A stretch of 64,000 nt of DNA from an uncultured Elusimicrobia bacterium (GTDB lineage: Bacteria > Elusimicrobiota > Elusimicrobia > UBA1565 > UBA9628): assembly GCA_964510095.1 (NCBI GenBank), contig CAZEAE010000015.1, positions 33-64,032 on the forward strand. Direction: 5' to 3'. A program made the translations under genes and the position numbers. The first letter of the stretch is position 1; each line of letters begins with the position of its first letter. Below the pieces are notes generated by a model. That model saw only the letters and a program-made list of their open reading frames with translations, made no database searches and was not told the origin of the DNA. Positions 3 through 49,875 of this stretch are shown piece after piece.

Positions 3-3000
3 CGGGCGGCTCTTTTCCCGGGAACTATCATCGACAATCCGACGATCAGCATTTTGGATCAGGGCGGGGCTGCGGTGGCCTGCGGAGCAGCCACGAATAC
101 TCAGTCGGTCCAAGTCAAGGTCGAGGATTTTATTTCTGGCCCAGGACGGCTCGAAATTTTCCAAAACAACGCCTTCCAGACGGCAAACGGCGGTTTCGTG
201 GGGGGAGATTACTTCGACGGAACGTCGCGGAACTTCACGGCGGCCGATCCAGGACTTTCCATCCTTGGCGGCGCTTCCGCGCCGATGGCAGAAGGCAGCT
301 ACACCGTGCGGGCTTTCGACCAGTCCGGAAATCGGGGTCCGGACTGTGGTTTCAGCATTTCGCCGCCTACCCCACCCCGCCTGACCTTCAGCAACGGTCG
401 GGTCAACTACAAGAACATCGTCGGCACCACCTCCCTCAACACCTCCACACTAGCCGATCCTCAATCCTACATCCTCGTCGAATCTGATCGCGGCGACCTC
501 GCCTCCGTGCAAATCGATGGTGGCGCCCTCCTTCCTGGCTTCCCGCCAGGAATCAACGCCGATAGCCTTCCCGCCGGTACATCGCGGGTGGAAAAACTGG
601 ATCTTCAAGCGGGGTCTCCGATCGGCCCGGGTGAACACACCATCACCGCGCTCAACACCGCCGGTCAAAAAACCGAGGCCAAATGGCGCGTCACCTCGAT
701 GGCTGCCACTCTTTCGCCCGGCTCGAATTCGACCTATAGCGAGAGCGCCGGCTTCAACGCCGCCGTCAGATTCAACATCAACAGCGGGATCAGTCTGCAG
801 CCGACTGGGCAGATCGTCAGACTAAGCGATCCTTTGACTGTATTTAGGACGATCCCCGTAGGCGGGGACCCTCCCAGCGCGTTGCTTCAGGTCGACGTAG
901 GAACTTCTTCCACCCTTGCCGACCAATATATCACGAGGGTGCGCGATATCGAGGGGAACAGCATTGATATCATCACCGACCTCAGCCTTGGCGACGTTAG
1001 TTTCAATCCCTTTCCGTTGGATACGATCCCCAAGTCCCACTCATCTACAGAGCCCTGGACCTCGGCCCCCGTCGATCTCCTCGCCCAACGGATACTTCCC
1101 GGTGCGATCTTGCGTACCGGTCTCACCAGAAATCCCCGTACGGGAGCGCCGGACTACGCCAATCCAGGCACCGCAGGCGCGGCGCTTTCGGGCAATACGC
1201 TCTACTTGCCCATCGGCGACGTTCAGGAGGTCGGGGAAATCGAAGGGAGGCTAGACGCCGGGACGGTCTTTCCGACCGCCGTCAGATTCGAGTCTGGCCC
1301 GTCGGGCATCGGCCTTTCGGTCACTACGACCACGCCAAACATCTTCTACCCCCTGCCACCGTCCTTCACTCTTCAACTGAGCCTGTTCAAGACCCCGCCG
1401 ACGCAGGCCCTCATACAGCATTGCACCACACCTGTCGATGGGAACAATAGCTGCCAGGCGCTGGATTTCCAACCCTCCGGCAGCTTCCAGCCCGAGATGG
1501 TCGGCGTGAGCCTGTCGACGGTATCGAGACCGGCCACGTTCCCGGGGTTCTTTTTCGCCGGCGCCCAAACGGTGCCCATCGCTGGAGGCATCACGGTCGA
1601 CCTCACCGCCACCGCTCCTGGCGTCGTCAGCGTGTCCCAGGGCTCCAGCCAACCCGAGCCCGGCTATCATACCGTCAGCCCGATCAACACTTACCAACTC
1701 TTATTCCCCGAGAACGCCATCGTCGGTCCCGTCACGGTCCACGTCCCCATCAGTGAGGTCTCTGCCGAAACCCTTGCCAAGCTGAAGGTCGCCTTGGTGC
1801 GAGACTGCGAGCTTCAACTCGTGCCCTCCGGCGCCGCAGGTAATGCGGTCACTTTCACCGCGAGCCTGAGCGGCGACTACATATTCGTCGTCGATGACTT
1901 CAGCAACCGCGCCATCGTCAGGAGCCCGGACGGACTGTTCAGCTTCGTTTCCGAGGCTCCCGGCGCCGAGCTCACCGTCAATCCCGTCGTGAGCAACCAG
2001 AGCCAGCTTGATAATCTCTTCGCCTCTATCGGCCTTAGCCGCACGGGCCAGGTCTATCAGCTAGGGCCCACCGGCCGCTCGTTTGCGACGCCCGGCGTCG
2101 TCAAGGTCTGCGGCGTTTCAGGAACCTCCCTGGAGCTTTACCAATACACCGCCGAAGGCGTCCGCGAACGGCTGCCCGGCCTGCGCAATGACACCGAGAG
2201 GGGCTACGTCGCGGCCCGTGTCGGCGGCTTCAGCTCCCTCTTCGGCTCTTTCATGCAGGCGCAGCCGGTGGCCGCCCAGGACCTCGCCGCCCCAGTCAGC
2301 CAGATCTTCTTTAGCCCCGCGGCCGCCATCGACGCTGAGGGCCGCTTCTTGCTTTCCTCCGCGACCCTCGTCAGCCTCACGGCGGTCGATCCCTTCTTCC
2401 CTGGCGCTCCCCAATCAGGCGTCGCCGCCACCCACTATCAAGTGGACCAGGAACCCCCTTCCGTATACGCCACGCCATTCTCGGTCGCGTCAGGCTCCCA
2501 TACGATCGTATTCTACAGTATCGACGCGGCGGGAAACACCGAGTCCAACAAGCAGGTCTCGACGACGGACGCTCCTCCCGCAGCGCAAGCCAGTGCCAGT
2601 TCCGGCCTGGCCTTGAGCGCGGATGCCGCCGGCAACCTCTGGGAGGTCGTCTCAGACACCGTCGGCGTCTCTTTGCTTAAATTCGGCGCCAGCGGCCAGT
2701 TCCTGGCCGGCATCAGCCTGCCCGAGGCTGGTGATCAAGGTGCTTGGTCCATCCGCTTCGACGCCGCAGGCAACGCATTGGCCGTCGGCACCGCATCGGG
2801 CCCCGCCACCGTCGGTATTGATGTCGCGGTCTACAAGGTCGCAGGCTCCGGCGATCTCCTGCTGTCGCGGCGCCTCTTCGACGGCGGCTTCAACGGCCAC
2901 GATTTCGCCTTGGACGCATCGGACAACCTCTGGCTCACCGGCGCGATCTCCGGGGAGCAAGGATTTGCCTTGGGTCTTTGGAAGTACACGATGGCCGAGG

Positions 3001-6000
3001 ATACGCTTGTCCTTAAAAGCACCTACTCGGCCGGCACGGGCTTTGACGGAGGCTTTGGCATCACCTTGGACGTCGCCCAGAACATCTGGGTGGTCGGCTT
3101 CTCTTCGAACGATTACACGGCCAACCCCAACAAGCTCGACTTGGCCCTTTGGAAGTTCGACGCCACCGGCACGCAGTTGCTGGACGGCCCCATGCTCCAG
3201 CCGGGCTATGCCCAGGGGGACGACGCTGGGCTCACCGCCAAAATACTGGCGACGCCCGACCACCTGATCGTGGCCTCATCCAGGCTCAACACGCTCGGCA
3301 ACAACGACCTAGCCTTACTGCGCTTCGACCTTGACGGAGGACTCCTCAGCCAAAAACTTTGGCATGGGGCGCCGGGAGCCTCGGACGTCCCCTATGCCAT
3401 GGCCTTGGACGGCAACGGCAACTTCCTCATCGCCGGCGAATCGACGACCGACCCCGAAAGCCCCGCTTTGGCTTTCTGGTCCATCGAGGCGGTCAACGGC
3501 TACTTCTCGAGCGCCCAGACCGTTCTCGGCGTAGGCGCCGCCCGTGGCCTCGCGCTGCAATCTCAACAAGTCTGGCTGGCCGTGGGCTCCAGCGCCCCGT
3601 ATCACTTCACGGGCGGAACCACGCTTGAAGGCGACGCCGGGGCCGAAGGCCCATCGGATTTTACGCCACCCACCACGCAACTCGTCGTCCTGGGCACGGC
3701 GTCGGTCTCGGGCGGCATCATCACGGCCGTGGAAGGCTCCAGCTTCGCGCTTATCGCCCAGGACCCGCTTGAAGGCGGCTACTCCTCGGGCGTTTCGGAT
3801 ACGATCTACGTGATCGACGACGATCCTATGTGCGATAATCCCGGCCCGAACACGGGGCCGGGCACTTGCCGCAATCCCATCTACGCGGGCCCCTTCTCGT
3901 TGGCCGTCGGCACCCATACGGTCTATTTCCTGTCGAGCGACCAGGCCGGCAACGAGGAAGACCTTAGGGTTTCCTCGATCACCGTCGTCTCGGGTGACGT
4001 TCAAGACAGCACCCCGCCCGTCACCGCCTTCGTCATCGGCGAGCCCCAGTTCAGTTCGGGGACGGTCTTCATCGCCAGCACGACGCCGCTCAATTTCACG
4101 GTGTCAGAGACGGCGCAGACGTTTTTCTCTATAGACGGAGGTTCATTCACCGTCTACGCTGGCACCTTCACCCTGCCTTTGGGGGGTTCCCGCTTGGTCT
4201 CTTTCTACAGCACGGACCCGGCCGGCAACGTGGAAGCGGTCCGGGCCAGCAGCGTCACCGTGGACGCTGCCGCGCCCGTCACGATCTTGTCGCTCACCGG
4301 TTCCACGGTCGCGCTCGTGGCCCAAGATACGGCCTCGGGCGTCGCTTCTATCTTATACTCAGTCGATGACGCCGGGTCCTACCTCCTGACCTATACCGCC
4401 CCCTTCCTGCTGGCGTCAGGCACGCATACGGTCTACTACGCCTCCACCGACCAAGTCGGCAATGCAGAGATCTTGAATTCGAGCGCCGTCCTCGTGGCTG
4501 TCGCGGCGACGCCGCCCTTGGCCTTGCTCAACCCCTCCACCGGCCCCATCGGCATCCCCTTCACCCTGACCGGTACGCCTTTCGGCACTTATAGCGGCGC
4601 CAACACCCGCGTGAAGTTCGGCACGCTCTCTGCTCCCATCAGCGTCTGGAACAACACGACCATCACGGGCACCATCCCCGGCCTGCTCACCGGGACCTAC
4701 CCGGTCGTCATCGAGCGCCAGACCGGCGCCGTCGTCGTTTCCACCTCCGCCGGTACCTTCACCGTGACTCGGCCCTCGGCCTTCCTCATCAATCCTTCCA
4801 CCGGCCCCATCGGCATCCCCGTCACCTTGACGGGCACGAGCTTCGGGCCCTACGCAGGCACCCTGACTCGCCTGCGCGTCGGCGGCTCCACCTCGCCGGT
4901 CAGCGTCTGGAACGACACCACGATCTTGATCACCCTGCCCAAGCTGAGCACCGGCACAAAGACCCTCTTCATAGAGCGCGCCTCCTCAGACGGCGGCCTG
5001 CTTGCCAGCGTCACCTACTACTTCACCGTCACCGCCCCACAGGTCAATACGATGACGCCGTCCTCTGGCCCCATCGGCATCCCCATCACCTTGACCGGCA
5101 CGAGCTTCGGGCCATTCTCGGGGGCCAACACGCGCCTGCGCATCGGCGGCTCCACGGCTGCGGTCAGCGTCTGGAATGACACTACCATCTCGGCCACCAT
5201 CCCCGGCGTGATGCCCGGCGCCCAGCCGCTCATCATCGAACGCGCCACCTCAGACGGCGGCCTGATGACCTCAGAAGTCCTCACCTTCAACGTTAACTTG
5301 CCCACGCCTTCCTCCATCACCCCTTCCTCGGGCCCTATCGGCATCGCGGTCACCGTCAACGGCGTCGGCTTCGGGCCCTTCAGCGGCGCGAACACCCGCT
5401 TGCTCATAGGAGGCGCGACATCTTCCATCAGCGTCTGGAACGACACCAAGATCGTCGCCACGGTACCAGGAATTCTCACGCCGGGGCCTAAAAGCGTTGT
5501 CGTTTCGCGCTTGACGGCCGGCGGCGGCGTCGCCGAAAGCGCGCCTTTATCGTTCCAGGTCGCAGGCCTCTTCATCGCCGCCTTCAGCCCTTCCACCGGC
5601 CCCATCGGCATCCCATTTACGCTGACCGGGACGGACTTCGGCACTTATAACGGAACTAACACGCGGGTCAAGTTCGGCACGGCGCTAGCGCCCATCAGTG
5701 TCTGGAACGATACGACGATCCAGGGGACCGTGCCGGGCGTGGTGCCCGGCACCTATACCGTCAGTGTCGAGCGCCAGAGCGGCGCGAACGTCTCGGCGGT
5801 GACTACGGACTTCACCGTGCTCCTGCCGCAGGCCCAGGCCATCGCCCCTTCCACCGGCCCCATCGGCATCGCCCTGACCGTCACGGGCACGGCCTTCGGA
5901 CCTTTCAACGGGACCAACACGAACCTCTTGATCGGCGGGACCACCGCGCCCATCAGCGTTTGGAACGATTCCACCATCATCGCCACGGTGCCGGGAGCCC

Positions 6001-8261
6001 TGACGCCCGGTGTTAAGGAGGTCATCGTCCGCCGCCAGACCGCCGATGGCGGGATTGCTGACAGCGTTGCTCTGTCCTTCGAGGCTACGGCCTTGGCCAT
6101 CGGCATGCTTAATCCATCTACCGGGCCCATCGGCATCCCCTTCTCGATCACCGGCACGGGCTTCGGTCCCTACAACGGCGTCAACACGCGGGTGAAGTTC
6201 GGCCCGGCCTCGGCTCCGATCAGCGTCTGGAACGACAGTATCATCTCGGGCACCGTGCCGGGCTTAGCTCCTGGCGACTATGCGGTCGTCATCGAGCGTG
6301 AGCAAGCGGGATTGGTCACGGCCAGCCCGGCGTCTAATTTCACCGTGCAGCTGCCGCAAGTCTTTACGCTGTCGCCGTCCTCCGCCCCGATCGGCGCGCT
6401 GCTGACTTTGACCGGGACGGGCTTCGGGCCTTTTAGCGGCGTCAACACCAGCCTGTTGATCGGAGGAACCACCGCGCCCATCAGCGTCTGGAACGACGGC
6501 ACTATCAGCGTCACGGTGCCAGGAACCCTGACGCCCGGTCTCAAGGAGGTCATCGTCCGCCGCCAGACCGCCGACGGCGGCATCGCCGACAGCGCTTCCC
6601 AGCCCGTTGAGGTCACGGCTTTGGCCATCGGCGCTCTGAGCCCTTCCACCGGCCCCATCGGCATTCCCTTCTCGATCACGGGCACGGGCTTCGGGCCTTA
6701 CAACGGGGCTAACACCCGGGTCAAGTTCGGGGCGACCTCAGCGCCGGTCAGCGTTTGGAACGACAGTACCATCTCGGGCACGGTGCCGGGCCTAACTCCT
6801 GGCGGCTATGCGGTCATCATCGAACGCGAACAGGCAGGCGTGGTCTCGGCCAGCCCGGCGTCTAATTTCACCGTGCAGCTGCCGCAGGTCTTTACGCTGT
6901 CGCCCTCCTCGGCACCCATCGGCGCGCCCTTTACCCTGACCGGCACGGGCTTCGGACCTTACGCGGCAGCGGCCACAAAGCTCCTTGTCGGCGGCTTGGC
7001 CGCGCCGGTCAGCGTCTGGAATGACACGACCATCTCAGCAACCGTTCCAGGGGCCGCCGTGGCGGGGCCGCAGGCGATCATCGTGGAGCGCACGACGGCT
7101 GACGGCGGCAGTGCCGACAGCGAGCCCCAAGCTTTTGATGTCGTCGTGCCCGTCATCGACTTGCTGTCGCCGACTCTTGGCCAAGCGGGCACGGCGTTCG
7201 AGTTGACGGGCGTCGGCTTCGGGCCCTACGCCGGCAGCCAGACCCAGGCCTTGGTCGGCGGCATCGCCGCTTCACTTTCTGTTTGGAACGACGTCCTGAT
7301 CCGCGGCATCATCCCCGATTCCCTAGCCAACGGCACCTACACGATCGTCGCCGTGCGCTCGCCGGCCGGTGGGAGCGTTCAGAGCAATGAAATCGCCTTC
7401 ACGGTCGGCTCGCCGCCCAACCAAGGGGTCCTGGCCGCAAGCAGTCTGTCACCCGCTTCACGCGTAGTGGTTCATCCGGCTTGGTACTACGAAGCCGGGC
7501 TTAAGCTGCCGGCCGATGAGGGCGGGCGCGTCGAGGCGCCTAGCCGGGCTTCCGTGATCGTCCCAGCCCGCGCTCTCGATCAAGACGTCGATGTGAGCAT
7601 CTTCCGGGGCAAGAAGGGGACGGCCGACCAGCAGGCCCGTGACGGGGCTCAGACAGCCGGTCGCCTGGGCAGCGCGGGCGAGGCCGTCGAGTTCGGGCCC
7701 GAGGGTACCCGGTTCACTGCGCCTGCCACCATAGAACTGCCTTACGACCCCGGCACAGTGCCTCCTGGGCGGGAGCGCGATGTGGCGGTCCACTACTGGG
7801 ATCCAACGGCCAAGGCTTGGTTCGCCTTGCGCAGCGAGTTGGACCTGGTCCGAAAGCGCGTCCGCGCCAAGACCGATCACTTCTCTTTGTATCAGCCCTT
7901 AGTGCCGGGCGTCGTCGGGGTGACGCCGGCCGCCGGCGGCGCGGGCTTCGGCTACGTCGACATGTATGCCTTCCCGAACCCGGCTAGAGGCAGTCAACAG
8001 CCGGTCGTGCGGGTTCAGGTGGGGCTTGCTGATGTCGTCGAGGTGAGGTATTACGATGTGACCGGAAGGCTGGTGAGGAGTGCCAGCTTGAGCAATCCTA
8101 AGGCCGTCGATGACGGCAACGGCAAGGGCAACCAGTGGACCTACGATGATGTTTGGGATACCGGGGGCGTGGCGTCCGGGGTGTATGTTTATACGGTCAC
8201 GGCGAAGAAGGGTGGGAGCGGGGATATTAGAAGGACCGGAAAGATAGCGGTGATCAAGTGA
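3..8261 (+). CDS. Giant surface/secreted protein, probably 5'-truncated: beta-propeller, four Ig-like (OmpL47-type) domains, 11 IPT/TIG repeats, ZU5-like domain, C-terminal T9SS type A sorting-like domain
   Basis: The frame is open from position 3 (RAALFPGTIIDN...) with no stop before the TTG at 54. It contains repeated D.xPPxT...Y(S)xDxAGNxE Ig modules, LDxxxNxWxxG propeller blades, 11 PSxGPIG...SVWND repeats, the ZU5-like FGPEGTRFTAPATIELPY, and the tail YAFPNPARG...SGVYVY...TGKIAVIK. Confidence 0.85.
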   Translation, partial: RAALFPGTIIDNPTISILDQGGAAVACGAATNTQSVQVKVEDFISGPGRLEIFQNNAFQTANGGFVGGDYFDGTSRNFTAADPGLSILGGASAPMAEGSYTVRAFDQSGNRGPDCGFSISPPTPPRLTFSNGRVNYKNIVGTTSLNTSTLADPQSYILVESDRGDLASVQIDGGALLPGFPPGINADSLPAGTSRVEKLDLQAGSPIGPGEHTITALNTAGQKTEAKWRVTSMAATLSPGSNSTYSESAGFNAAVRFNINSGISLQPTGQIVRLSDPLTVFRTIPVGGDPPSALLQVDVGTSSTLADQYITRVRDIEGNSIDIITDLSLGDVSFNPFPLDTIPKSHSSTEPWTSAPVDLLAQRILPGAILRTGLTRNPRTGAPDYANPGTAGAALSGNTLYLPIGDVQEVGEIEGRLDAGTVFPTAVRFESGPSGIGLSVTTTTPNIFYPLPPSFTLQLSLFKTPPTQALIQHCTTPVDGNNSCQALDFQPSGSFQPEMVGVSLSTVSRPATFPGFFFAGAQTVPIAGGITVDLTATAPGVVSVSQGSSQPEPGYHTVSPINTYQLLFPENAIVGPVTVHVPISEVSAETLAKLKVALVRDCELQLVPSGAAGNAVTFTASLSGDYIFVVDDFSNRAIVRSPDGLFSFVSEAPGAELTVNPVVSNQSQLDNLFASIGLSRTGQVYQLGPTGRSFATPGVVKVCGVSGTSLELYQYTAEGVRERLPGLRNDTERGYVAARVGGFSSLFGSFMQAQPVAAQDLAAPVSQIFFSPAAAIDAEGRFLLSSATLVSLTAVDPFFPGAPQSGVAATHYQVDQEPPSVYATPFSVASGSHTIVFYSIDAAGNTESNKQVSTTDAPPAAQASASSGLALSADAAGNLWEVVSDTVGVSLLKFGASGQFLAGISLPEAGDQGAWSIRFDAAGNALAVGTASGPATVGIDVAVYKVAGSGDLLLSRRLFDGGFNGHDFALDASDNLWLTGAISGEQGFALGLWKYTMAEDTLVLKSTYSAGTGFDGGFGITLDVAQNIWVVGFSSNDYTANPNKLDLALWKFDATGTQLLDGPMLQPGYAQGDDAGLTAKILATPDHLIVASSRLNTLGNNDLALLRFDLDGGLLSQKLWHGAPGASDVPYAMALDGNGNFLIAGESTTDPESPALAFWSIEAVNGYFSSAQTVLGVGAARGLALQSQQVWLAVGSSAPYHFTGGTTLEGDAGAEGPSDFTPPTTQLVVLGTASVSGGIITAVEGSSFALIAQDPLEGGYSSGVSDTIYVIDDDPMCDNPGPNTGPGTCRNPIYAGPFSLAVGTHTVYFLSSDQAGNEEDLRVSSITVVSGDVQDSTPPVTAFVIGEPQFSSGTVFIASTTPLNFTVSETAQTFFSIDGGSFTVYAGTFTLPLGGSRLVSFYSTDPAGNVEAVRASSVTVDAAAPVTILSLTGSTVALVAQDTASGVASILYSVDDAGSYLLTYTAPFLLASGTHTVYYASTDQVGNAEILNSSAVLVAVAATPPLALLNPSTGPIGIPFTLTGTPFGTYSGANTRVKFGTLSAPISVWNNTTITGTIPGLLTGTYPVVIERQTGAVVVSTSAGTFTVTRPSAFLINPSTGPIGIPVTLTGTSFGPYAGTLTRLRVGGSTSPVSVWNDTTILITLPKLSTGTKTLFIERASSDGGLLASVTYYFTVTAPQVNTMTPSSGPIGIPITLTGTSFGPFSGANTRLRIGGSTAAVSVWNDTTISATIPGVMPGAQPLIIERATSDGGLMTSEVLTFNVNLPTPSSITPSSGPIGIAVTVNGVGFGPFSGANTRLLIGGATSSISVWNDTKIVATVPGILTPGPKSVVVSRLTAGGGVAESAPLSFQVAGLFIAAFSPSTGPIGIPFTLTGTDFGTYNGTNTRVKFGTALAPISVWNDTTIQGTVPGVVPGTYTVSVERQSGANVSAVTTDFTVLLPQAQAIAPSTGPIGIALTVTGTAFGPFNGTNTNLLIGGTTAPISVWNDSTIIATVPGALTPGVKEVIVRRQTADGGIADSVALSFEATALAIGMLNPSTGPIGIPFSITGTGFGPYNGVNTRVKFGPASAPISVWNDSIISGTVPGLAPGDYAVVIEREQAGLVTASPASNFTVQLPQVFTLSPSSAPIGALLTLTGTGFGPFSGVNTSLLIGGTTAPISVWNDGTISVTVPGTLTPGLKEVIVRRQTADGGIADSASQPVEVTALAIGALSPSTGPIGIPFSITGTGFGPYNGANTRVKFGATSAPVSVWNDSTISGTVPGLTPGGYAVIIEREQAGVVSASPASNFTVQLPQVFTLSPSSAPIGAPFTLTGTGFGPYAAAATKLLVGGLAAPVSVWNDTTISATVPGAAVAGPQAIIVERTTADGGSADSEPQAFDVVVPVIDLLSPTLGQAGTAFELTGVGFGPYAGSQTQALVGGIAASLSVWNDVLIRGIIPDSLANGTYTIVAVRSPAGGSVQSNEIAFTVGSPPNQGVLAASSLSPASRVVVHPAWYYEAGLKLPADEGGRVEAPSRASVIVPARALDQDVDVSIFRGKKGTADQQARDGAQTAGRLGSAGEAVEFGPEGTRFTAPATIELPYDPGTVPPGRERDVAVHYWDPTAKAWFALRSELDLVRKRVRAKTDHFSLYQPLVPGVVGVTPAAGGAGFGYVDMYAFPNPARGSQQPVVRVQVGLADVVEVRYYDVTGRLVRSASLSNPKAVDDGNGKGNQWTYDDVWDTGGVASGVYVYTVTAKKGGSGDIRRTGKIAVIK
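4511..7407 (+). repeat. Intragenic array of 11 IPT/TIG-like repeats (about 85-90 aa each)
   Basis: The SVWN motif occurs 11 times in the translation. Near-identical DNA blocks recur 528 bp apart (gccagcccggcgtctaatttcaccgtgcagctgccgca at 6321 and 6849). Confidence 0.9.
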
Positions 8262-9241
8262 ACTGCTTTATAAACGGCAAAGGCGCTGTAACGGATCGGC
8301 GCCGCGAGGCGCCGGAGTTCGCGGCTTCGCCGCGAACTTTCATTTTCGGGTTCATCTTCCTTTTCGGGCTCATTTCCGCGGCTACGGCGCAGGAGAGCGC
8401 GGCGTTCCTTAAACTCGGCGTCGGGGCCCGGGCGGTCGGCATGGGCGGAGCTTATACGGCCCTGGCTGACGACGTCAATGCGCTTTTCTGGAACCCGGCG
8501 GGGTTGTCGCGGCTTTCTAAGCGCGAGCTTGGCTTCACGCATGCGGAGCTGGTGGCCGGCATGCGCTACGACGTCGTGGGCTACGCTCACCCGCTTGGCT
8601 TCGGAACATTGGCGGGCGGGGCGGCTTACCTGACCCAGGGTACCATAGAAGGGCGAGACGCGGCCGGCAAGCCCACGGGCGGCTTCTCGGCCCATGACTC
8701 GGCGCTGACCTTGGGCTACGCGGCCAAGGTCCAGGAGATGCGCCTGGGCGCGACCATGAAGGTCGTGCAGAGCCAAATAGCCAACGTGTCGGCGCAGACG
8801 GCGGCCTTGGACTTGGGCGCGCAATACGAACTGGCCGACCTTGGCGTCGGCCGGCCGCTGCTGGGGTTATCGGTCTTGAACGTCGGCCCCGGCCTCAAGT
8901 TCCAGGATCAGCGCAGCCCGTTGCCGCTGACCGTGGGCGTCGGCCTTGGCTACCGCTTGCCGCCGGCGCTGCTCTTCGCTCTCGATGTCAAGAATCACCC
9001 TAACGCCAAGAACTCAGACGTAAGCATCGGCGCCGAGTACGCACTGGTCTCGGGCTTTACCATGCGCGCAGGCTACGGCTCGGCGCGGGCGGCTTCAGCG
9101 TCCCAAGGCGCGCAGACCGCGCTCAACGGATTTGCCGTCGGCTTCGGCCTCAAGGCCAGCGGCTATAACCTCGACTATGCAATCACACCCTTCGGCGAGC
9201 TGGGTAACGTCCAGCGCTTCTCCCTCGGAGCCCGGTTCTAG
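8258..9241 (+). CDS. PorV/PorQ-family (UPF0164-like) outer-membrane beta-barrel protein
   Basis: Family signature AAFLKLGVGARAVGMGGAYTALADDVNALFWNPAGL, alternating beta-strands and a terminal Phe (FSLGARF). The GTG start overlaps the upstream TGA. Confidence 0.85.
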   Translation: MNCFINGKGAVTDRRREAPEFAASPRTFIFGFIFLFGLISAATAQESAAFLKLGVGARAVGMGGAYTALADDVNALFWNPAGLSRLSKRELGFTHAELVAGMRYDVVGYAHPLGFGTLAGGAAYLTQGTIEGRDAAGKPTGGFSAHDSALTLGYAAKVQEMRLGATMKVVQSQIANVSAQTAALDLGAQYELADLGVGRPLLGLSVLNVGPGLKFQDQRSPLPLTVGVGLGYRLPPALLFALDVKNHPNAKNSDVSIGAEYALVSGFTMRAGYGSARAASASQGAQTALNGFAVGFGLKASGYNLDYAITPFGELGNVQRFSLGARF

Positions 9242-9243
9242 CC

Positions 9244-9921
9244 ATGCACCGACGGGGAGCTTTCTGCCTTCCGGTGCTGGCCTTCCTCGCATTGTCCTGC
9301 GCTCCCGCGCCCCAAGACCTCGTCTCCAAAGGCAAGGCTTATTACCAGGCCAGCAACTGCCGCGCCTGCCACCGGATCGGCGCGGAAGGCGCCGCGGGCG
9401 GGCCCGACCTGACCCTCGTGGGCATGCGCCAGGGCCAGGCCTGGCTCGACCTTTGGCTGAAGGACCCCGCCGCCTGGCGGCCCCAGACGACGATGGCCAA
9501 CCCCGGCTTGTCCGCGCCGGCCCGCCAAGCCATCGTCGCCTATCTGGCTTCCCTAAAAGGGCAGGATTGGAGCAAGAAACCGTGGGAGGACGCTCCTGCG
9601 AGCGCCGCCCGAGGCAAGCTCATCTATCAGCACGCCGGCTGCGCCTCCTGCCATGGCCCTAATGGGGCCGGGGGCAACCCTAACAACAATGTGCCCGGCG
9701 GCAAGATCCCGGCCCTGGACTCCGTCTCGCAGACCTTCACTAAGGAAGAGCTCAAGAACAAGGTACGCCTAGGGGCGCGCCCCCAGAAAGCCGATCCCGC
9801 CGGCCCCGAGCCGCTGGTGGCCATGCCCGCTTGGAAGGCCCTGCTGACCGAAGACGAGCTTGGAGACGTCGTCGAATATCTCTTCACCCTCCGCTCCGCC
9901 AAACCCGACGCCGGCTGGTAG
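9244..9921 (+). CDS. Diheme c-type cytochrome, probable lipoprotein
   Basis: CRACH and CASCH heme motifs, distal Met in TTMAN and AMPAW, and LALSC lipobox-like signal. Confidence 0.85.
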   Translation: MHRRGAFCLPVLAFLALSCAPAPQDLVSKGKAYYQASNCRACHRIGAEGAAGGPDLTLVGMRQGQAWLDLWLKDPAAWRPQTTMANPGLSAPARQAIVAYLASLKGQDWSKKPWEDAPASAARGKLIYQHAGCASCHGPNGAGGNPNNNVPGGKIPALDSVSQTFTKEELKNKVRLGARPQKADPAGPEPLVAMPAWKALLTEDELGDVVEYLFTLRSAKPDAGW

Positions 9922-9940
9922 CACCCGCCAAGACTCATTT

Positions 9941-9968
9941 TTGACAAAGCTTGTCCGGATTTGATAAT
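9941..9968 (+). promoter_or_regulatory. Sigma70-like promoter of the cox operon
   Basis: TTGACA-N16-GATAAT, 9 nt upstream of ATG 9978. A GACAA-agc-TTGTC inverted repeat overlaps the -35 box. Confidence 0.55.
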
Positions 9969-9977
9969 CTGCTAATA

Positions 9978-10742
9978 ATGAACTGGGGCTTGCCCGCCGC
10001 CGCCTCCACCTACGCCGGAGAGATCGACTTCGGCATCAAGCTGATCCATTGGGCGATGCTCTTCATCTTCGTCCTCTGGGGCGTCTTCTTCGCCTACCTG
10101 CTGGTCCGCTACCGCCGCCGGCCCGGAGTCCCCGCCGAACGCGAGCATGAACACAGCGTCCTCAAGAGCCTGGCGCCCGACATCGCCGTCATGGTCTTCG
10201 AGATCGGCCTCATCGCGCTCTACGCCTTGCCGGTCTGGAGCCGGATCAAGGTCTCGTTCCCCGACCCCGCTTCCGCCCATCAGGTCGACGTCATCGCCGA
10301 GCAGTTCGCCTGGAACGCCCATTACCCGGGCCCCGACGGCAAGTTCGGCCGCCGTGACCCCAAGCTCCTCCACTTCACCAACCCCATCGGCCTCGACCTG
10401 ACCGACCCCGCCGCCGAGGACGACCTCGTGTCGGCCAACGACATCCACATGCCCCTGGGCAAGCAGACCTTGATCCGGCTGAGCTCCAAGGACGTCATCC
10501 ACAGCTTCTTCGTGCCGGAGTTCCGCATCAAGCAGGACGCCGTGCCCGGCATGGTGATCCCGGTCTGGGTCGAGCCCTCCCGCGCGGGCGTCTTCGTGAT
10601 CAGCTGCGCCCAGCTCTGCGGCTTCGCCCACAGCATCATGCGCGGCGACGTCATCGTCCACACCCCCGAGGATTACGCGGCCTGGGTCAAGGCGCAAGCC
10701 GGGCAGGCGGTCAAGAAGGAGAAAGCGGCAGAGTCATGGTAA
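9978..10742 (+). CDS. coxB: Cytochrome c oxidase subunit II
   Basis: Two TM helices, AEQFAW, KDVIHSF and the CuA motif CAQLCGFAHSIM. ATG 9978 is preferred over TTG 9951. Confidence 0.95.
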   Translation: MNWGLPAAASTYAGEIDFGIKLIHWAMLFIFVLWGVFFAYLLVRYRRRPGVPAEREHEHSVLKSLAPDIAVMVFEIGLIALYALPVWSRIKVSFPDPASAHQVDVIAEQFAWNAHYPGPDGKFGRRDPKLLHFTNPIGLDLTDPAAEDDLVSANDIHMPLGKQTLIRLSSKDVIHSFFVPEFRIKQDAVPGMVIPVWVEPSRAGVFVISCAQLCGFAHSIMRGDVIVHTPEDYAAWVKAQAGQAVKKEKAAESW

Positions 10743-12478
10743 CCCACGCCCCCGACGCGCACCACGGACACGAGCCCCAGCATTGGGTGTGGAAATACGT
10801 CTTCTCCCTCGACCACAAGGTCATCGGCCTGCAGTATCTGATCACCTCCTTCGTCTTCCTGATGATCGGCTTCATGCTCATGATGCTGATGCGCTGGCAG
10901 CTGGCCTACCCCGGCGTGGCGATCCCCTTCTTCGGCAAGCTCTTCTCGCCTGAGCTGGCGCCCAACGGCGTCATGTCCGGGGAGTTCTACAACTCGCTCG
11001 GCGCCATGCACGGCACCATCATGGTCTTCTTGGGCGTGGTCCCCCTCGGCGTCGGCGCCTTCGGCAACTACGTCCTGCCGCTGCAGATCGGCGCGCCCGA
11101 CATGGCCTTCCCGCGATTGAACCTGGCTTCTTATTGGGTCTATCTGCCCGGCGGCCTGCTGATGCTGGCCTCCTTCCTCATGCCCGGCGGCGCCGCCCAA
11201 TCGGGCTGGACCTCTTACCCGCCGCTGTCGATCATCAACCCCGGCCAGACCGTCTGGCTGCTCTCGATGGTCCTCTTGATCACCTCCTCGCTCCTTGGCT
11301 CGATCAATTTCCTGGTGACCGCTTTGAACCTGCGCGCTCCCGGGCTGAGCCTCTGGCGCCTGCCCGTCTTCACCTGGTCCCAGATCGTGACCGCCGTGCT
11401 GCTGCTGCTGGCCTTCCCGCCGCTGGAGGCCGCCGCGGTCCTGCAGCTGATGGACCGGGTCTTCCACACCAGCTTCTACATCCCCACCGGCATGGTCGTC
11501 CTCGGCAAGGAGAGCAACTTCTCCGGCGGCGGCCAGCCGCTGCTCTGGCAGCACCTGTTCTGGTTCCTGGCCCACCCCGAGGTCTACGTCCTCGTCCTGC
11601 CCCCGATGGGCATCTGCGCCGAGATCTTCGCCAACAACACGCGCAAGCCCCTGCACGGCTACAAGACCATCGTCATCTCGATGATCTCCATCGGCGTCTT
11701 GTCCTTCACCGTCTGGGCCCACCACATGTTCCAGAGCGGCATGAGCCCGGCCCTCGGGAATTTCTTCCTGGTCACGACCATGCTCATCTCCGTGCCCTCG
11801 GTGGCCATCCTGACCAGCTTCATCTACAGCCTCAAAGGCGGGTCCATAAGGTTCAACGTGCCCATGCTCTTCGCCCTGGCCTTCCTCCCGATGTTCGGCA
11901 TCGGCGGGCTCACGGGCCTGCCGCTGGGCCTGACGGTGACCGACATCTATCTGCACGACACCTACTACGTGATCGGCCACTTCCACTACGTCGTCGTCAC
12001 GGGCTCCATCATCGCGCTCTTCGCCGGCGTATATTTCTGGTTCCCGAAGTGGTTCGGCCGGAAGATGGACGATACCCTCGGGAAGATCCATTTCTGGGGG
12101 ACGCTGGCCAGCATGAACGGCATCTTCTTCCCGATGTTCATCATGGGCATGGCCGGGGCCAACCGCCGCTACTACGACATGACGGCGCATACCCACACCC
12201 TGGGCATCCAGCACTGGAACGTCGTGGCCACCTGGTCGGCCTACGCCTTGTTCGCCTTCCAATTCCCATTCATCTACAACTTCTTCAACAGCATGTTCCG
12301 CGGAGAGAAGACCGTCGAGAATCCATGGCAGGCGACCACGCTGGAATGGGCCTGCCCCTCGCCTCCCCCGCACGGCAACTTCACCGAGACCCCGCGCGTC
12401 TACCGCGGCCCTTACGAGTACACGCCCGAAGGCGGCAAGACCGACTGGCACCCCCAGCACGTCAAGGACCCCGCATGA
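10736..12478 (+). CDS. coxA: Cytochrome c oxidase subunit I (A-type heme-copper oxidase)
   Basis: [26 protein letters not shown] and [12 protein letters not shown] motifs. Confidence 0.97.
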
Positions 12479-13065
12479 GCGCGCACGCCGCCGTCTTGGA
12501 GCAGAACGACACGCACAGCGGCATCACCAACGCCAAGCTGGGCATCTGGCTCTTCCTGGCCTCCGAGGTGATGCTCTTCTCGACCCTCTTCACCAGCTAC
12601 ATCGTCCTGCGGATGGCGGCCCCCAGCTGGCCCCGCGGCTGGGACGAGCTCAACGTCCCCTTGGCCATGATTAACACCTTCGTGCTGATCACCTCCTCGG
12701 TGACGATGGTGCTGGCCTATGCCAAGGCCTACGACAAGGACCTCACGGGCTTCCGGCGCTACATGGCGCTGACCATCGCCCTGGGCGGGCTCTTCCTCGT
12801 GTTCAAGGGCTTCGAGTACGGCGCGCATTTCAAGCACCACCAGTTCCCCTCAACGAGCATCTTCAACGCCGTTTATTTCACGCTGACGGGCCTGCACTGC
12901 GTCCACATCATCGGCGGCCTGATCGTCAACGCCGCGCTGCTGTGGCTGGCCGGAGAGGACTTCCTGCACCCGCTCTTCCTAGGGCGCATCGAGGGCGCCG
13001 GGCTTTACTGGCATTTCGTCGACCTCGTCTGGATATTCCTCTTCCCCGCCCTTTACCTGTTATGA
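12475..13065 (+). CDS. coxC: Cytochrome c oxidase subunit III (short form)
   Basis: ATG 12475 overlaps the coxA TGA. Motifs [21 protein letters not shown] and YWHFVDLVW. Confidence 0.95.
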
Positions 13066-13421
13066 GCGCCAGCAAAGAAGCCTCCCTCGACGCGCACCGG
13101 CCGAACGTCAAAGTCTACCTGATCGTCTTCGCCGTCCTGATGGTGATGACCGTCGTCACGGTGCTGGTCTCCTACTGGCACCTGCCGCCATTGCAAGCCG
13201 TCGCGCTGGGCCTGGCCATCGCCACCTTCAAGGCCGGCCTGGTCGCCTTCTATTTCATGCACCTCAAGGACGAGCGTCCCCTGATCTACGGCCTTCTCGC
13301 CATCACCGCTTTCCTGCTCCTGTTCTTGTATATCCTCCCGGTCACCGACAGCCGCCTCATCAGCGACAAGGCGGCGCCCGCCGCGCCCGTCAGCGCCGCG
13401 CCGCAGGCGCACGAGCACTGA
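13062..13421 (+). CDS. coxD: Cytochrome c oxidase subunit IV family protein
   Basis: ATGA overlap with coxC; [12 protein letters not shown]...[13 protein letters not shown] motif. Confidence 0.9.
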
Positions 13422-13600
13422 TGTCGCTCAAAGCCTTCCACGTCGTGTTCATCTTCGCCTCCCTCTCGCTGATGGGCTTCTCCAGCTACTGGTCGCTGGC
13501 CCAGGCGCAATGGGGTCTGCTGGCCTCCGCCGGCGCCGGGTTCGCGGCCGGCTTGGGCTACCTGGGCTGGTTCCTGCGCGCCCATCGGGCCTTGCGATGA
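13421..13600 (+). CDS. 59-aa two-TM membrane microprotein ([17 protein letters not shown]...), absent from the ORF track
   Basis: ATG at 13421 overlaps the coxD TGA, and its TGA at 13598-13600 overlaps the next ATG. It has two hydrophobic segments. Confidence 0.75.
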   Translation: MSLKAFHVVFIFASLSLMGFSSYWSLAQAQWGLLASAGAGFAAGLGYLGWFLRAHRALR

Positions 13601-13794
13601 GCGGCCTGCTGTGGGCGCTGCTCTCCCCCCGGACGGCCGCGGCCTGCGCCGTCTGCTTCAACCCGAACGACAAGAGCGGCCTGGCGGCGGGCTTCAAGTG
13701 GGGCTTGATCGCCCTGCTAGGCACGACCTTCTTCGCCTTGGGCGGCATCATCCTGGCCATCGCCAAGATCGAGCGCGCCCGCAAGCCCCTATGA
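13597..13794 (+). CDS. 65-aa membrane microprotein with CxxC (ACAVCF) motif
   Basis: ATGA coupling on both sides; signal-like N-terminus, AAACAVCF, then one TM helix. Confidence 0.75.
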   Translation: MSGLLWALLSPRTAAACAVCFNPNDKSGLAAGFKWGLIALLGTTFFALGGIILAIAKIERARKPL

Positions 13795-14618
13795 CCCCCA
13801 CGCTGCGCCTCTACGCTCGCCTGACGGCCGGCAGCGCCTTCTTCCTGCTCATCGCCGGCGGCATGGTGACCTCGACGGGTGCCGGGCTCTCCGTGCCGGA
13901 CTGGCCCTTGGCTTTCGGCATGGTCTTCCCGCCGATGATCGGCGGGGTGTTCTACGAGCACGGCCACCGGCTGACGGCCGGCGTCGTCAGCCTGCTGACC
14001 TTCGGCCTGGCCTTCTGGGTGCACCGCACGGAGGAGCGCCTCTGGGTGCGCCGCTTGGCGCTGGCCGCCGCGGGCGGGATCCTGGGCCAAGCCCTGCTGG
14101 GCGGCCTGACGGTGATCCTCAAGCTTCCGGCCGTGGTCTCGGTCTCTCATGCCTGCCTCGGCCAGGCGATCTTCTGCCTCCTCCTGCTGCTGGCGCAGGC
14201 GACTACGGACCTGCCGCAAGGCCGCGCTCCGGCGCACGTGTGGAAGGCCGCCGCCGGCGCCTCCGCGGCGGTCTTCCTGCAGCTTTTCTTAGGCGCGCTC
14301 GTGCGCCACACCGGCCATGGGCTGACGGTCCACATCATTTGGGCTGCCGGCGCGACGATCGCCGTGCTCGCGGCCGCGGGCCTGGCGCTAAAGGCCTCCG
14401 GAGAACAAACGGCGCTCAAGGGGCCGGCCATCGCCTTGGGCCTCTTGATCCCGCTCCAGCTGGCGCTAGGGTTCATGGCTCTGATCATCCGGCACTCGGC
14501 GCTGTCTCCTCTAGGCTTCCGGGCCTCGGCGCTGATGATCACCGCTCATCTGGCCGCAGGCGCCTTGATCCTGGGCGCAAGCGTAGTCCTGGCGGCGCGA
14601 GCCTATCAGACCCGATGA
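13791..14618 (+). CDS. ctaA: Heme A synthase (COX15/CtaA family)
   Basis: GGMVTSTGAGLSVPDWP, EHGHRL, QALLGGLTV and HACLGQ motifs; cox operon context. Confidence 0.9.
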   Translation: MTPTLRLYARLTAGSAFFLLIAGGMVTSTGAGLSVPDWPLAFGMVFPPMIGGVFYEHGHRLTAGVVSLLTFGLAFWVHRTEERLWVRRLALAAAGGILGQALLGGLTVILKLPAVVSVSHACLGQAIFCLLLLLAQATTDLPQGRAPAHVWKAAAGASAAVFLQLFLGALVRHTGHGLTVHIIWAAGATIAVLAAAGLALKASGEQTALKGPAIALGLLIPLQLALGFMALIIRHSALSPLGFRASALMITAHLAAGALILGASVVLAARAYQTR

Positions 14619-15454
14619 GACCCTACGCCGCGCTCTGCAAGCCGCGCATCGCCCTGATGGTCGCCTTGACGACCTGGCTGGGCTTCGCCGTGGCCGGCGG
14701 ACATTTCGGAGCGAGACTGCTCTGGACGCTCCTGGGCACGACGCTGGCGGCTTGCGCCTGCGGATGTCTGAACCAGTGGCTCGAGGTGGCTCAGGATTCA
14801 AGGATGACGCGCACCGCCAAGCGCCCCCTTCCGGCCGGCGACCTGACCTCCCCGCAGGCCCTGGCCTTCGGCCTTTCGCTGGCCGCGCTGGGGCTGGCCG
14901 TCCTGGCCTGGAAATCGAACGCACTGGCCCTGGGGATCACCGGCGCCACCCTGATCCTCTATCTTCTAGCCTACACGCCCCTCAAGCAGGTGACGCCGCA
15001 GACGACCTGGATCGGCGCGGTGGCGGGCGCGACGCCGCCTCTGGTGGGCTGGGCGGCGGCGCGCGGCAATCTGGCGGCGCAAGCCTGGGTGCTCTTCGCC
15101 ATCCAGTTCCTCTGGCAGATCCCCCATTTTTTGGCCATGTTCCACATGCACCGAGACGACTACGAGAAGGCCGGCTTCAAGGTGATGCCGGTCGTAGACG
15201 ACCGCGGCGACGTGACGGCGGCCCAGATCGCGCTGCACTCCTTCACGGTCCTGCCGGCCAGCCTGGCTCCCAGCTTCTGCGGCATGGCCGGTCCCGCTTA
15301 CGGCCTAGGCGCGCTGGTGCTGGGCACCGCCTACCTGGGCCTGGGCATGCGTGCCAGCTGGACCTTGGCCCGCGTCGACACCCGCCGTCTTTTCTTGGCC
15401 TCATTGCTCTATCTGCCGGCCATCTTCGGCATGCTTCTTCTGGGAGGCGTTTGA
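14615..15454 (+). CDS. ctaB: Protoheme IX farnesyltransferase (heme O synthase)
   Basis: LCKPRI, NQWLE..QDSRMTRTAKRPLP, YTPLK, WQIPHF and RDDYEKAG motifs. Confidence 0.95.
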   Translation: MRPYAALCKPRIALMVALTTWLGFAVAGGHFGARLLWTLLGTTLAACACGCLNQWLEVAQDSRMTRTAKRPLPAGDLTSPQALAFGLSLAALGLAVLAWKSNALALGITGATLILYLLAYTPLKQVTPQTTWIGAVAGATPPLVGWAAARGNLAAQAWVLFAIQFLWQIPHFLAMFHMHRDDYEKAGFKVMPVVDDRGDVTAAQIALHSFTVLPASLAPSFCGMAGPAYGLGALVLGTAYLGLGMRASWTLARVDTRRLFLASLLYLPAIFGMLLLGGV

Positions 15455-37264: not shown

Positions 37265-38602
37265 CTAGAAGCCACTGGTGTCTTTCTTGGCGATGCTGAG
37301 CAGCCAGGAGGCCAAGTCCTCCATATCCTTATCACTGATCTTATCTTTCCAAGGCGGCATGTACAAGGGCGGCACGGGGCCGTCCGGGTTGAACTTGTTG
37401 ACGGCCGAGCTGGGCACGCCGATGGCGATCTTGGCCATCAGCTCCTCCTTCGTGTAGGTGCCCACGACGTCGACGAGGGTGGGCTCTCGGCCCTTGTCCA
37501 TGTCCTTGTCCGGGTCCTGCTGGCCGGGCCCCATGGCGTTATAGTTGCGGCGGCCCTGGGCGCCGTTGAGGCCGTGGCAGCCGGCGCAGCCGTATTTCTC
37601 GAAGATGTGCTTGCCGCGGGACAGGCTGTCGGCGAACTTAGGCTCCGGCGGAGGCGAGGCGTGGACGTAGAAGTTGTTGGGCACGTGCTCGTCGGTCATG
37701 GACATCAGGTAGGCCGTGATCGCCTCGGCGCCTTCCTTGCCCAGCTCTTCGCGGAAGTCCGGCATGCCCGAGGGCGCGATAGGCTCGGTGTTGAACTTCT
37801 TGTGCGGGTCGTTGGGCGTGACCTCGATCGGGTCGTTGGTCAGATGGCCGCGGATCCAGTTCTGGATGTTCCAATCCTCGTGATGCAGGGGTTTGCCGTC
37901 GCGCATCACGCGGGAGAAGTTGAAGCCGGCGATGCGCTCCAGCGGCTTGTCGGCGATGTTGCCCAGGTCGACGCTGATGATGCCGCCCACGCCGCGGATG
38001 GCATGGCAGCCTTGGCAGCCGTGCTGCTGGAAGAGCTTCGCCCCCTTGGCCGCGAACTCCGCGCCCTTGAGCGTGGCGAAGCCGGCGTGGCAGCGGATGC
38101 AGGAGCCCTGCACGAGCTTGCCCTCGAGGATCGGCCGCTCCCAGTTATGGATGCGGCCGTGGCCGTCCTTCGTGGTCAGCGCCAGGCCTTGGCCTTCGTG
38201 GCAGACGGTGCAGCCGAACTTGGTGAAAGGATGGTTCTTGACCAGAAGGTCGAGCTTCGGGTGGGACTTGTACGGGTTCTCCTTGAAGTCGTTGACCATG
38301 GTCGGGTTGGCGTACTCGTCCATGCCCACGTGGCAGGTGATGCAGCGGTCGGCGCGGTCCAAGCCCTTGGGCAGGATCTGCTTGATCTCCATGCCCGCCC
38401 GGCCCAGGCTGACGGCCTGCTCCGTGAGGATCTTCGCTTTCGCCGGATCCTTCTCGGCAGCGCCGGCCTTCGCGGCCGCCTCGGAGGCCATCTTGAAGTA
38501 AGTCCGCTGATACCCCTTCCACTCCGGCGTGAAGTCCAAGTAGTAGGCGTAGACGAAGGCCGCCAGCAGCGCGAAGTTCAAGCCATAGAACCATTTCCGC
38601 AT
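37265..38602 (-). CDS. Membrane-anchored pentaheme c-type cytochrome (cytochrome c subunit of the Rieske/b complex)
   Basis: N-terminal TM; CITCH, CTVCH, CIRCH, CQGCH and CAGCH. Confidence 0.9.
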   Translation of the reverse strand: MRKWFYGLNFALLAAFVYAYYLDFTPEWKGYQRTYFKMASEAAAKAGAAEKDPAKAKILTEQAVSLGRAGMEIKQILPKGLDRADRCITCHVGMDEYANPTMVNDFKENPYKSHPKLDLLVKNHPFTKFGCTVCHEGQGLALTTKDGHGRIHNWERPILEGKLVQGSCIRCHAGFATLKGAEFAAKGAKLFQQHGCQGCHAIRGVGGIISVDLGNIADKPLERIAGFNFSRVMRDGKPLHHEDWNIQNWIRGHLTNDPIEVTPNDPHKKFNTEPIAPSGMPDFREELGKEGAEAITAYLMSMTDEHVPNNFYVHASPPPEPKFADSLSRGKHIFEKYGCAGCHGLNGAQGRRNYNAMGPGQQDPDKDMDKGREPTLVDVVGTYTKEELMAKIAIGVPSSAVNKFNPDGPVPPLYMPPWKDKISDKDMEDLASWLLSIAKKDTSGF

Positions 38603-38615
38603 AGTCAGCTCATCC

Positions 38616-40271: not shown

Positions 40272-40277
40272 AGGGGT

Positions 40278-40877: not shown

Positions 40878-40933
40878 AAAGCGGTCATCACCTTATCAAA
40901 GGATGGCAATACCTGTCAAATCTTACGACGAGC

Positions 40934-41449: not shown

Positions 41450-41460
41450 ATGGGTCTCCT

Positions 41461-43430: not shown

Positions 43431-43434
43431 CGCT

Positions 43435-44280: not shown

Positions 44281-44306
44281 GCGAGCGCTATTCTAGCTTT
44301 TTTTGC

Positions 44307-48465: not shown

Positions 48466-48553
48466 GGATCCTCCCTTTGGGGCGTCTGCAGGTATTATAA
48501 GCCCCGCCGGGGCGTTTGCTCTGGGCCCTTGGGGGAAGCGCGCGAAGTTTTTT

Positions 48554-48640
48554 GGCCTAGGCCTATGGACCCATAGCGTCATAGGCCCTAAGGCCCATGG
48601 CAGGGCCAAAGGGCCCACCTACAATAGGCCTATCGGTCCT
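48554..48640. promoter_or_regulatory. GG(N)CC-pair motif cluster D
   Basis: About nine GGCC/GGACC/GGTCC cores within 87 bp of a divergent intergenic region, including ggcctaggcc and gggccaaagggccc. Confidence 0.55.

Positions 48641-48648: not shown

Positions 48649-49875
<1,227 letters not shown>

Follow-up and report, generated by a model that had tools for sequence, protein, structure and literature searches.

A giant protein with a type A-like C-terminal domain and its adjoining PorV/PorQ-family barrel: a conserved gene pair of Elusimicrobiota

The window analysed here, a stretch of 64 kb from an uncultured Elusimicrobia bacterium (assembly GCA_964510095.1, contig CAZEAE010000015.1), opens with two overlapping genes on the forward strand. 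The first open reading frame (ORF A) encodes a giant putative surface protein ending in a C-terminal domain (CTD) of the kind carried by type A cargos of the T9SS (type IX secretion system), and the second (ORF B) encodes an outer-membrane barrel of the PorV/PorQ family. We describe the homologies of the two proteins, their predicted folds, the taxonomy of their host and the conserved adjacency and overlap of their genes. On these grounds ORF B is probably a receptor dedicated to the CTD of one cargo, which would anchor or deliver the giant protein at the cell surface. The examined sequence comprised the window (G+C content of about 65%) and about 1.9 Mb of loci centred on similar pairs; the share of the host genome that is visible amounts to about 2%. 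The features on which the argument relies are the following.

3..8261, + strand: ORF A, a putative surface protein or adhesin of giant size; a single open frame of 2752 codons with its 5' end beyond the window edge
3909..4520, + strand: OmpL47-type/Big_13 immunoglobulin (Ig)-like barrel domains, ORF A aa ~1303-1506 (NF047446, 135.9 bits, 3 stretches; PF19077, weak)
4518..7436, + strand: IPT/TIG array of 11 repeats with a period of ~88 aa and two alternating subtypes (PF01833, 276 bits, 11 stretches)
7971..8258, + strand: type A-like CTD, a beta-sandwich, ORF A aa 2657-2752 (TIGR04183, match of the tail profile to the PorU CTD, AlphaFold2 (AF2) model)
8258..8261, + strand: GTGA, overlap of the ORF A stop (TGA, 8259-8261) with the ORF B start (GTG, 8258-8260)
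8258..9241, + strand: ORF B, PorV/PorQ-family outer-membrane barrel of 327 aa (NF033709, PDB profile, AF2 model and Foldseek)
8297..8339, + strand: two adjacent GC-rich RNA hairpins at the 5' end of ORF B, within the codons of its N-terminal extension (fold of 8240-8360: -49.1 kcal/mol, z=-2.86)

The two proteins and the junction of their genes

The visible part of ORF A is 2752 aa long, its N-terminus lying outside the window, and its G+C content at third codon positions (GC3) is 0.79. Along the TIG array the motif P[ST][ST]GPIG recurs at a spacing of 86-89 aa, and Tandem Repeats Finder reported a period of 264 nt over the same region. Weak SBBP propeller repeats and choice-of-anchor Z (CoaZ) repeats are also present. 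The term 'adhesin', under which this protein was first described, agrees with the 11 IPT/TIG repeats, the OmpL47-type and Big_13 domains and the SBBP repeats, and is to be taken as a guess drawn from these domains.

The protein ends in ...YAFPNPARGS...VEVRYYDVTGRLV...WDTGGVASGVYVYTVTAKKGGSGDIRRTGKIAVIK*, and this tail contains YYDVTGRLV, then WDTGGVASGVYVYTV and finally the terminal TGKIAVIK*. Residues 2657-2737 passed the NCBIfam model TIGR04183 (T9SS type A sorting domain) with 28.7 bits for a cut-off of 23 (E=9.7e-7), and the tail also aligned with the C-termini of NCBIfam models for PorZ and for M6-like T9SS cargos/proteases. Alignment of 26 tails revealed the common motifs PNP...YD..G..V...W...SGVY.Y...GK.AVIK, and the profile derived from them retrieved a single significant sequence from the PDB, the C-terminal domain of PorU (6za2_A residues 1061-1154, E=1e-4). 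The last 110 residues of ORF A were modelled with AF2 from a 3-sequence alignment, since a protein search of word-based sensitivity with the 110-aa tail gave 2 matches. The model (predicted local distance difference test, pLDDT, 81.5) is an 8-strand beta-sandwich for which Foldseek placed PorU 6za2 on top, both by template modelling (TM) score normalised to the query (TMq, 0.60-0.62) and by identity (24-26%), with an E-value of only ~3e-3. Most complete homologous cargos open with a typical Sec-type signal peptide.

ORF B obtained 180.9 bits with the generic model NF033709 ('PorV/PorQ family', cut-off 90) and remained under the cut-off of every equivalog, namely PorQ (NF033711, 144 bits for 220), PorV2 (NF052325, 95 for 325) and PorV (NF033710, 69 for 250). 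Barrels from ten other lineages likewise reached the generic family model only. Compared with the PDB, a profile of 23 homologues matched Flavobacterium johnsoniae PorV (6h3i_F, E=1.6e-16). The AF2 model of ORF B (pLDDT 81.6) displays 14 strands and an N-terminal plug (aa ~46-89) within the lumen; its Foldseek matches were PorV structures 8gl6_F and 6h3i_F at TM 0.70-0.71, and TodX/FadL at about 0.56. Among Pfam families, UPF0164 was found with 34 bits and Toluene_X weakly, and the PorP/SprF model TIGR03519 gave no match to ORF B at E<0.01. At the N-terminus, the N-region is longer than usual and leads to a hydrophobic signal-peptide core (aa 27-44) and ...FIFGFIFLFGLISAATA/QE (AATA/QE), and the C-terminus reads ...SLGARF*, with Phe as last residue. 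'PorV/PorQ family protein' is already the database label of such barrels, and 'T9SS type A sorting domain' is probably that of their cargos.

The original prediction, made from the DNA letters, had pointed to an Ig-like CTD tail on a giant protein and to a PorV-family barrel ending in Phe whose GTG is overlapped by the TGA of the giant gene. Both proteins were recognised as such by the family models and the PDB profiles, the barrel also by its predicted fold, and the overlap is the GTGA at 8258-8261. The two genes had also been called translationally coupled. Coupling is probable, and we deduce it from the 4-nt overlap. No other in-frame ATG, GTG or TTG precedes the signal peptide of ORF B, the reading frame from the GTG to this signal peptide survives indels in two relatives, and no promoter-like site was found between the two ORFs. 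The 4-nt overlap was present in 40 of 68 metagenome pairs and in 16 of 37 pairs from Elusimicrobiota genomes, and was seen as well in independent gene calls on other contigs.

The first codons of ORF B have a peculiarity of their own. They specify an unusual N-terminal extension of ~26 aa (GKGAVTDRRREAPEFAASPR), which is kept only in the closest homologues (proteins P0002-P0004 and loci L082 and L083), and they contain the two hairpins, whose stems are GGCGCC-gcga-GGCGCC and AGTTCGCGGC-ttc-GCCGCGAACT, with a T-rich run after them. In L082 and L083 the second stem shows no variation. These hairpins could constitute a regulatory RNA element or an attenuator between cargo and barrel. A terminator at 8315-8350, suggested by a GC-rich hairpin and a T-rich run, was considered and rejected: this segment was treated as coding because the terminator scan made no call and relatives keep the frame in spite of indels.

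Conservation of the pair and origin of the contig

Linkage between the two genes was examined from both sides. On the barrel side, 80 genome loci were collected around the best ORF B matches (one genome per GTDB species), and on the CTD side, 73 metagenome loci were retrieved with a CTD alignment. Counting barrels with room upstream, a CTD gene was located immediately 5' of the barrel in 37 of 41 loci labelled as Elusimicrobiota, in 18 of 26 loci from other or unlabelled phyla, and in 2 of 13 loci from Gemmatimonadota, Eisenbacteria, Zixibacteria and Bacteroidota. Conversely, a PorV-family barrel lay immediately 3' of the CTD-ending ORF in 68 of 73 cases with room downstream. Over the 80 genome loci, the genes immediately upstream on the same strand nearly always ended in ...W(D/N)...SGVY.Y...GK.AV(I/V)(K/R). 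Their 74 tails matched TIGR04183 in 52 cases, the PorZ tail in 53 and the PorU tail in 33; FlgD models matched 11 of them, and the type B model TIGR04131 weakly matched 2. Cargo lengths ranged from ~340 to >3300 aa, the CTD being always located at the extreme C-terminus.

Several pairs may be hosted by one genome: at least four were found in JACPOW01 (L009, L011, L013 and L022), and three barrels were found within 20 kb in L003. All-against-all clustering of the ORFs, performed on the first 80 and then on all 153 loci, revealed no recurrent third gene beside the pairs. An 18-member ORF cluster that had been considered as a third partner was discarded as an antisense shadow ORF inside the barrel gene. 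Flanking genes varied from locus to locus, and in the closest relatives the genes following the pair were unrelated to those of the window. The adjacency observed from both sides, the presence of several pairs per genome and the lack of a conserved third gene in these loci give strong support to the proposed cargo with a dedicated barrel.

The contig belongs to Elusimicrobiota. An exact copy of ORF B was found on contigs from the Hainich groundwater well H51 (ENA ERZ1292641). Among the matches listed, all ORF B homologues with a named source came from metagenome-assembled genomes (MAGs) of Elusimicrobia/Elusimicrobiota, and with one genome per GTDB species the top matches were nearly all Elusimicrobiota, many of them from groundwater and with 59-69% G+C. 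HemA, encoded 34 kb away from ORF B (42396-43442), gave the same answer, as 9 of the 9 organism-named sequences among its best 120 homologues were from Elusimicrobia/Elusimicrobiota. This phylum is placed outside the Fibrobacteres-Chlorobi-Bacteroidetes (FCB) group in NCBI taxonomy. Judged from the ORF B and HemA homologues and from this taxonomy, the contig originates from Elusimicrobiota and not from Bacteroidota or another FCB lineage, as would be expected of a T9SS host; the original prediction had made its proposal of an unusual system depend on just such an origin.

Other observations were made on individual loci. In five loci from MAGs of Elusimicrobiales/Elusimicrobiaceae (L041, L047, L048, L050 and L077), the barrel carries an extra C-terminal extension of ~200 aa, for a total of 510-530 aa. 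In these loci the gene before the barrel encodes a PQQ-propeller/fn3 protein of ~1050-1160 aa, with a CTD ending in ...KKLAIIH, and the gene before this CTD gene encodes an LTD/fn3/propeller protein of ~2100-2200 aa without CTD. In two Elusimicrobiota pairs that are unrelated to each other (L157-L160, 5410-6111; L161, 3479-4204), the cargo gene has a response-regulator gene immediately 5' of it, which may exert a local control of the cassette; a gene for an ATPase of type II secretion system/type IV pilus type was found at the edge of L161. Pairs resembling those of Elusimicrobiota were also present in a MAG labelled Armatimonadota (L006) and in MAGs labelled Clostridia (L037, L040 and L066). 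The barrel of L006 shares 49% identity with ORF B; the cargo of this locus (~340 aa) clusters with those of L007, L015 and L019. Mis-binning or mislabelling of these MAG contigs is suggested by the occurrence of an outer-membrane barrel in 'Clostridia'.

Proposed role, alternatives and known systems

The following sequence of events is proposed. ORF A would be a giant surface protein exported by the Sec pathway, with a T9SS type A-like CTD made up of its last ~95 residues. ORF B would be co-transcribed and probably translationally coupled with it, and would provide a 14-strand barrel dedicated to this one cargo. The CTD may bind to the extracellular loops of ORF B; such docking is proposed because the homologues of the two partners are known to interact. 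The barrel would then hold or deliver the putative adhesin at the surface, the CTD probably remaining uncleaved. The pair would behave as a self-contained cassette that underwent duplication and relocation within Elusimicrobiota genomes, at approximately one barrel for each cargo.

Part of the data weighs against this proposal. At E<0.01 neither Pfam Por_Secre_tail (PF18962) nor FlgD_ig matched the tail of ORF A; both models do match the tails of homologous cargos, and PF18962 is precomputed for P0249. Foldseek matched the CTD model to Ig-like folds of a generic kind. Divergence of CTDs and barrels was correlated over 60 pairs (Mantel r=0.64, p=0.001), but this is no proof of specificity because inheritance of the cassette as a unit predicts it by itself. 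In one instance the pairing is swapped (L015, 4974-16199, compared with L007, 6997-8986): the 364-aa cargo of L015 has a CTD 81% identical to that of the L007 cargo but is followed by a divergent barrel, and the L015 barrel that is 82% identical to the L007 barrel comes after a 1671-aa cargo with a different CTD subtype. Orphan CTD proteins without adjoining barrel were also detected, with 14 cases in the barrel-centred loci and 5 among the 73 CTD-centred loci, as was an orphan S8 peptidase with a FlgD_ig/CTD-like tail in L161 (12315-13937, - strand). Owing to the L015 swap and to these orphans, specificity is likely not absolute, and one barrel for each cargo is not a strict rule.

How the cargo reaches the surface is a separate matter. 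The original prediction had offered a minimal two-gene system for either export or anchoring. The conserved two-gene cassette agrees with it, and anchoring by a receptor is favoured over export, since a plugged 14-strand barrel of FadL type is an implausible channel for a protein of >2750 aa; a separate translocon is needed for the cargo. Two origins of this translocon can be envisaged, and both are variants contained in the receptor role proposed above, not additions to it.

The first is an ordinary T9SS, with SprA, PorK/L/M/N and PorU encoded elsewhere in the genome, ORF A being a type A cargo like any other and ORF B a supplementary PorV paralogue, specific to this cargo, that docks on SprA. 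We consider it a possibility to be held tentatively. Both parts belong to T9SS families, the PorV mechanism as solved requires SprA (PMC10994853), and the small visible share of the genome leaves ample room for the other genes. Moreover, the Bacteroidota also provide an example of a cargo followed by such a barrel: in Marinifilum sp. (L067, 2898-10861) a 2298-aa CTD cargo is separated by 132 nt from a barrel that reaches the generic PorV/PorQ model only. On account of this pair, cargo-linked paralogues of the PorV family may exist inside Bacteroidota with a full T9SS. However, the phylum lies outside the FCB group, PMC4793230 and later reviews locate T9SS in Bacteroidota/FCB only, and ORF B falls below the PorV, PorQ and PorV2 cut-offs. 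No T9SS core component was found among the 44 window ORFs scanned, and no core gene recurred beside the pairs in the 153 pair-centred loci. TXSScan detected neither T9SS nor any other known secretion system in Elusimicrobium minutum Pei191 and in the Rs-D17 endosymbiont (PMC4793230 Table S3). A literature search returned nothing substantive that linked Elusimicrobia with T9SS or PorV, nor any paper describing a PorV2 protein family, a name that appears once in Lauber 2024. Taken over the window and the pair-centred loci, these results suggest that T9SS is absent from the lineage but are not decisive.

An apparent sprA-porU-porV cluster was considered during this search in L041, L047, L048, L050 and L077, where an ORF of ~2100 aa and a CTD ORF of ~1100 aa precede the 510-530-aa barrel. 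It was rejected because the large ORFs are LTD, fn3 and PQQ-propeller surface proteins without SprA or C25 sortase domains.

The second variant supposes that Elusimicrobiota and other pair-bearing lineages outside the FCB group (MAGs of Dependentiae, Aerophobetes, Edwardsbacteria and Acidobacteriota) are devoid of SprA and PorKLMN. The pair would then be an independent and possibly ancestral display module, in which the cargo crosses the outer membrane by another route before being captured by its own barrel, and from which PorV and PorQ were later derived. This too is a speculative scenario, to which we attach limited credence.

A self-sufficient exporter, in which the barrel and the barrel assembly machinery (BAM) would thread the cargo through the outer membrane in the manner of autotransporters or two-partner secretion, is very improbable. 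Cargo and barrel are admittedly the sole conserved unit, and their coupled synthesis recalls TpsA/TpsB operons. But ORF B was modelled as a barrel of FadL/PorV type with 14 strands and a lumen plugged by aa 46-89, POTRA or Omp85 features are missing from it, PorV acts as a carrier and not as a channel (PMC10994853), and the recognition domain is a folded C-terminal beta-sandwich rather than an N-terminal two-partner secretion (TPS) domain. Scarcely credible, finally, is the lack of any functional link, with ORF B as a channel that, like FadL, would pass hydrophobic compounds and with the tail as one more Ig-like adhesin domain of FlgD type: the weak Toluene_X match, the FadL/TodX-like fold and the 11 tails matched by FlgD models point that way, but adjacency has been kept from both sides over hundreds of millions of years in changing contexts, PorV is clearly the top match by sequence and by fold, and the CTD occupies the extreme C-terminus in all cases.

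The receptor role has a parallel in PorV itself. In F. johnsoniae, the extracellular loops of PorV docked on SprA grip type A CTDs, after which PorV carries the cargo off (PMC10994853), and every type A cargo of a bacterium is handled by the same PorV in Bacteroidota (PMC12618676). PorV (LptO; known from F. johnsoniae, structures 6H3I and 8GL6, and from Porphyromonas gingivalis) and ORF B are homologous 14-strand barrels of the FadL fold, each with a type A-like CTD partner. They differ in their genetics, as Elusimicrobiota have several barrels, each beside one cargo, instead of a single PorV for all type A cargos. PorV also works docked on SprA (PMC10994853). The host phylum of ORF B is outside the FCB group. 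With 402 aa, PorV is longer than ORF B (327 aa, about 75 fewer), which reached 69 bits for the PorV cut-off of 250.

PorZ and PorU are held on the surface by PorQ and PorV, respectively. In either pair, a barrel of the PorV/PorQ family keeps permanent hold of its protein through the CTD, which is the role proposed for ORF B. PorZ and PorU are attached to their barrels through CTDs that are not cleaved. Among the equivalogs, ORF B scores highest with PorQ (144 bits); PorZ and PorU have C-termini to which the cargo tails can be matched. The differences are that ORF B does not reach the 220 bits required for PorQ, that the cargos are adhesin-like or propeller proteins and not PorZ or C25 sortases, and that porQ and porZ are not known to be adjacent in P. 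gingivalis.

Gene organisation can be compared with that of type B cargos such as SprB, for which a neighbouring gene supplies a PorP/SprF barrel that binds the CTD and anchors or shuttles the cargo (PMC9143113; PMC12618676). In the SprB-SprF and PG1035-PorP pairs, as in Elusimicrobiota, a giant adhesin gene is followed by its own barrel gene, with several pairs per genome (PMC9143113, PMC12618676). The logic of the gene pair is nevertheless all that is shared: the barrels belong to the PorP/SprF family (TIGR03519) and not to PorV/PorQ, the tail matches the type A model (TIGR04183) and in the window left the type B model TIGR04131 unmatched at E<0.01, and all known type B examples operate within a full T9SS. 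More distant are FadL/TodX and Treponema UPF0164, which share the fold superfamily, the 14 strands and an N-terminal hatch; FadL/TodX show a lower fold similarity than PorV (TM ~0.56), and FadL genes are not coupled to CTD-cargo genes. TpsA/TpsB (type Vb secretion system, T5bSS) also form a two-gene unit of a very large adhesin-like protein and a dedicated barrel, but this is an analogy only, as there is neither an Omp85/POTRA transporter nor an N-terminal TPS domain, and both gene order and recognition domain differ.

Judged from its sequences, the Elusimicrobiota module merges a type A-like CTD and a PorV/PorQ-type barrel with the one-cargo-one-barrel genetics of type B systems, an arrangement so far known only for type B CTDs with PorP/SprF. 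We found no description of a conserved cassette of this kind in the literature, nor of its multicopy state or its prevalence outside the FCB group. T9SS is treated as an invention of Bacteroidota/FCB, and many copies of a cassette made of the same parts are now found in a phylum outside this group. If a translocon of SprA type is present, T9SS-like secretion extends over more of the bacteria than reviews describe, and cognate carriers exist for type A CTDs as well. In the opposite case, without such a translocon, the docking of CTDs on barrels is older than T9SS or separate from it, and this absence would bear on the evolution of T9SS and on the display of giant adhesins in poorly known phyla.

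Other genes of the window

Respiratory genes directly follow the pair. A diheme cytochrome c gene begins 3 nt past the ORF B stop; next come coxB, coxA and genes for a caa3 subunit IV-like protein and for heme o synthase. A strong promoter-like site, TTGACA-16-GATAAT, is located at 9941-9968, just 5' of coxB. Region 9244-15454 is a set of aerobic respiration genes, with a caa3 oxidase operon, of a groundwater Elusimicrobiota. Meheust et al. (10.1101/765248) have reported aerobic respiration for Elusimicrobiota of lineages IV and V. A second respiratory and heme cluster, on the - strand (37265-45212), encodes a Rieske protein, a fused cytochrome b (ExtP/b6-like and ExtQ-like), a 445-aa c-type cytochrome, a CfbA-like chelatase, HemA and the cytochrome c biogenesis protein CcsB.

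Further downstream, a 1864-aa ORF (49882-55476, - strand) combines a region resembling phosphoenolpyruvate (PEP) synthase and pyruvate phosphate dikinase (PPDK), of the rifampicin phosphotransferase-like kind, with a C-terminal domain similar to low-molecular-weight phosphotyrosine phosphatase/ArsC; its first ~1000 aa gave no family match. It adjoins genes for a mycosin-like S8 protease (48649-49875) and for a 1096-aa protein with almost no family match (45328-48618). Near the end of the window (58820-63771) lie two tandem FabH-like ketosynthase III genes, FabG and a FabF-like ketoacyl synthase (KAS) II with an N-terminal extension of ~95 aa, all below equivalog cut-offs, which may represent a specialised lipid or polyketide cluster.

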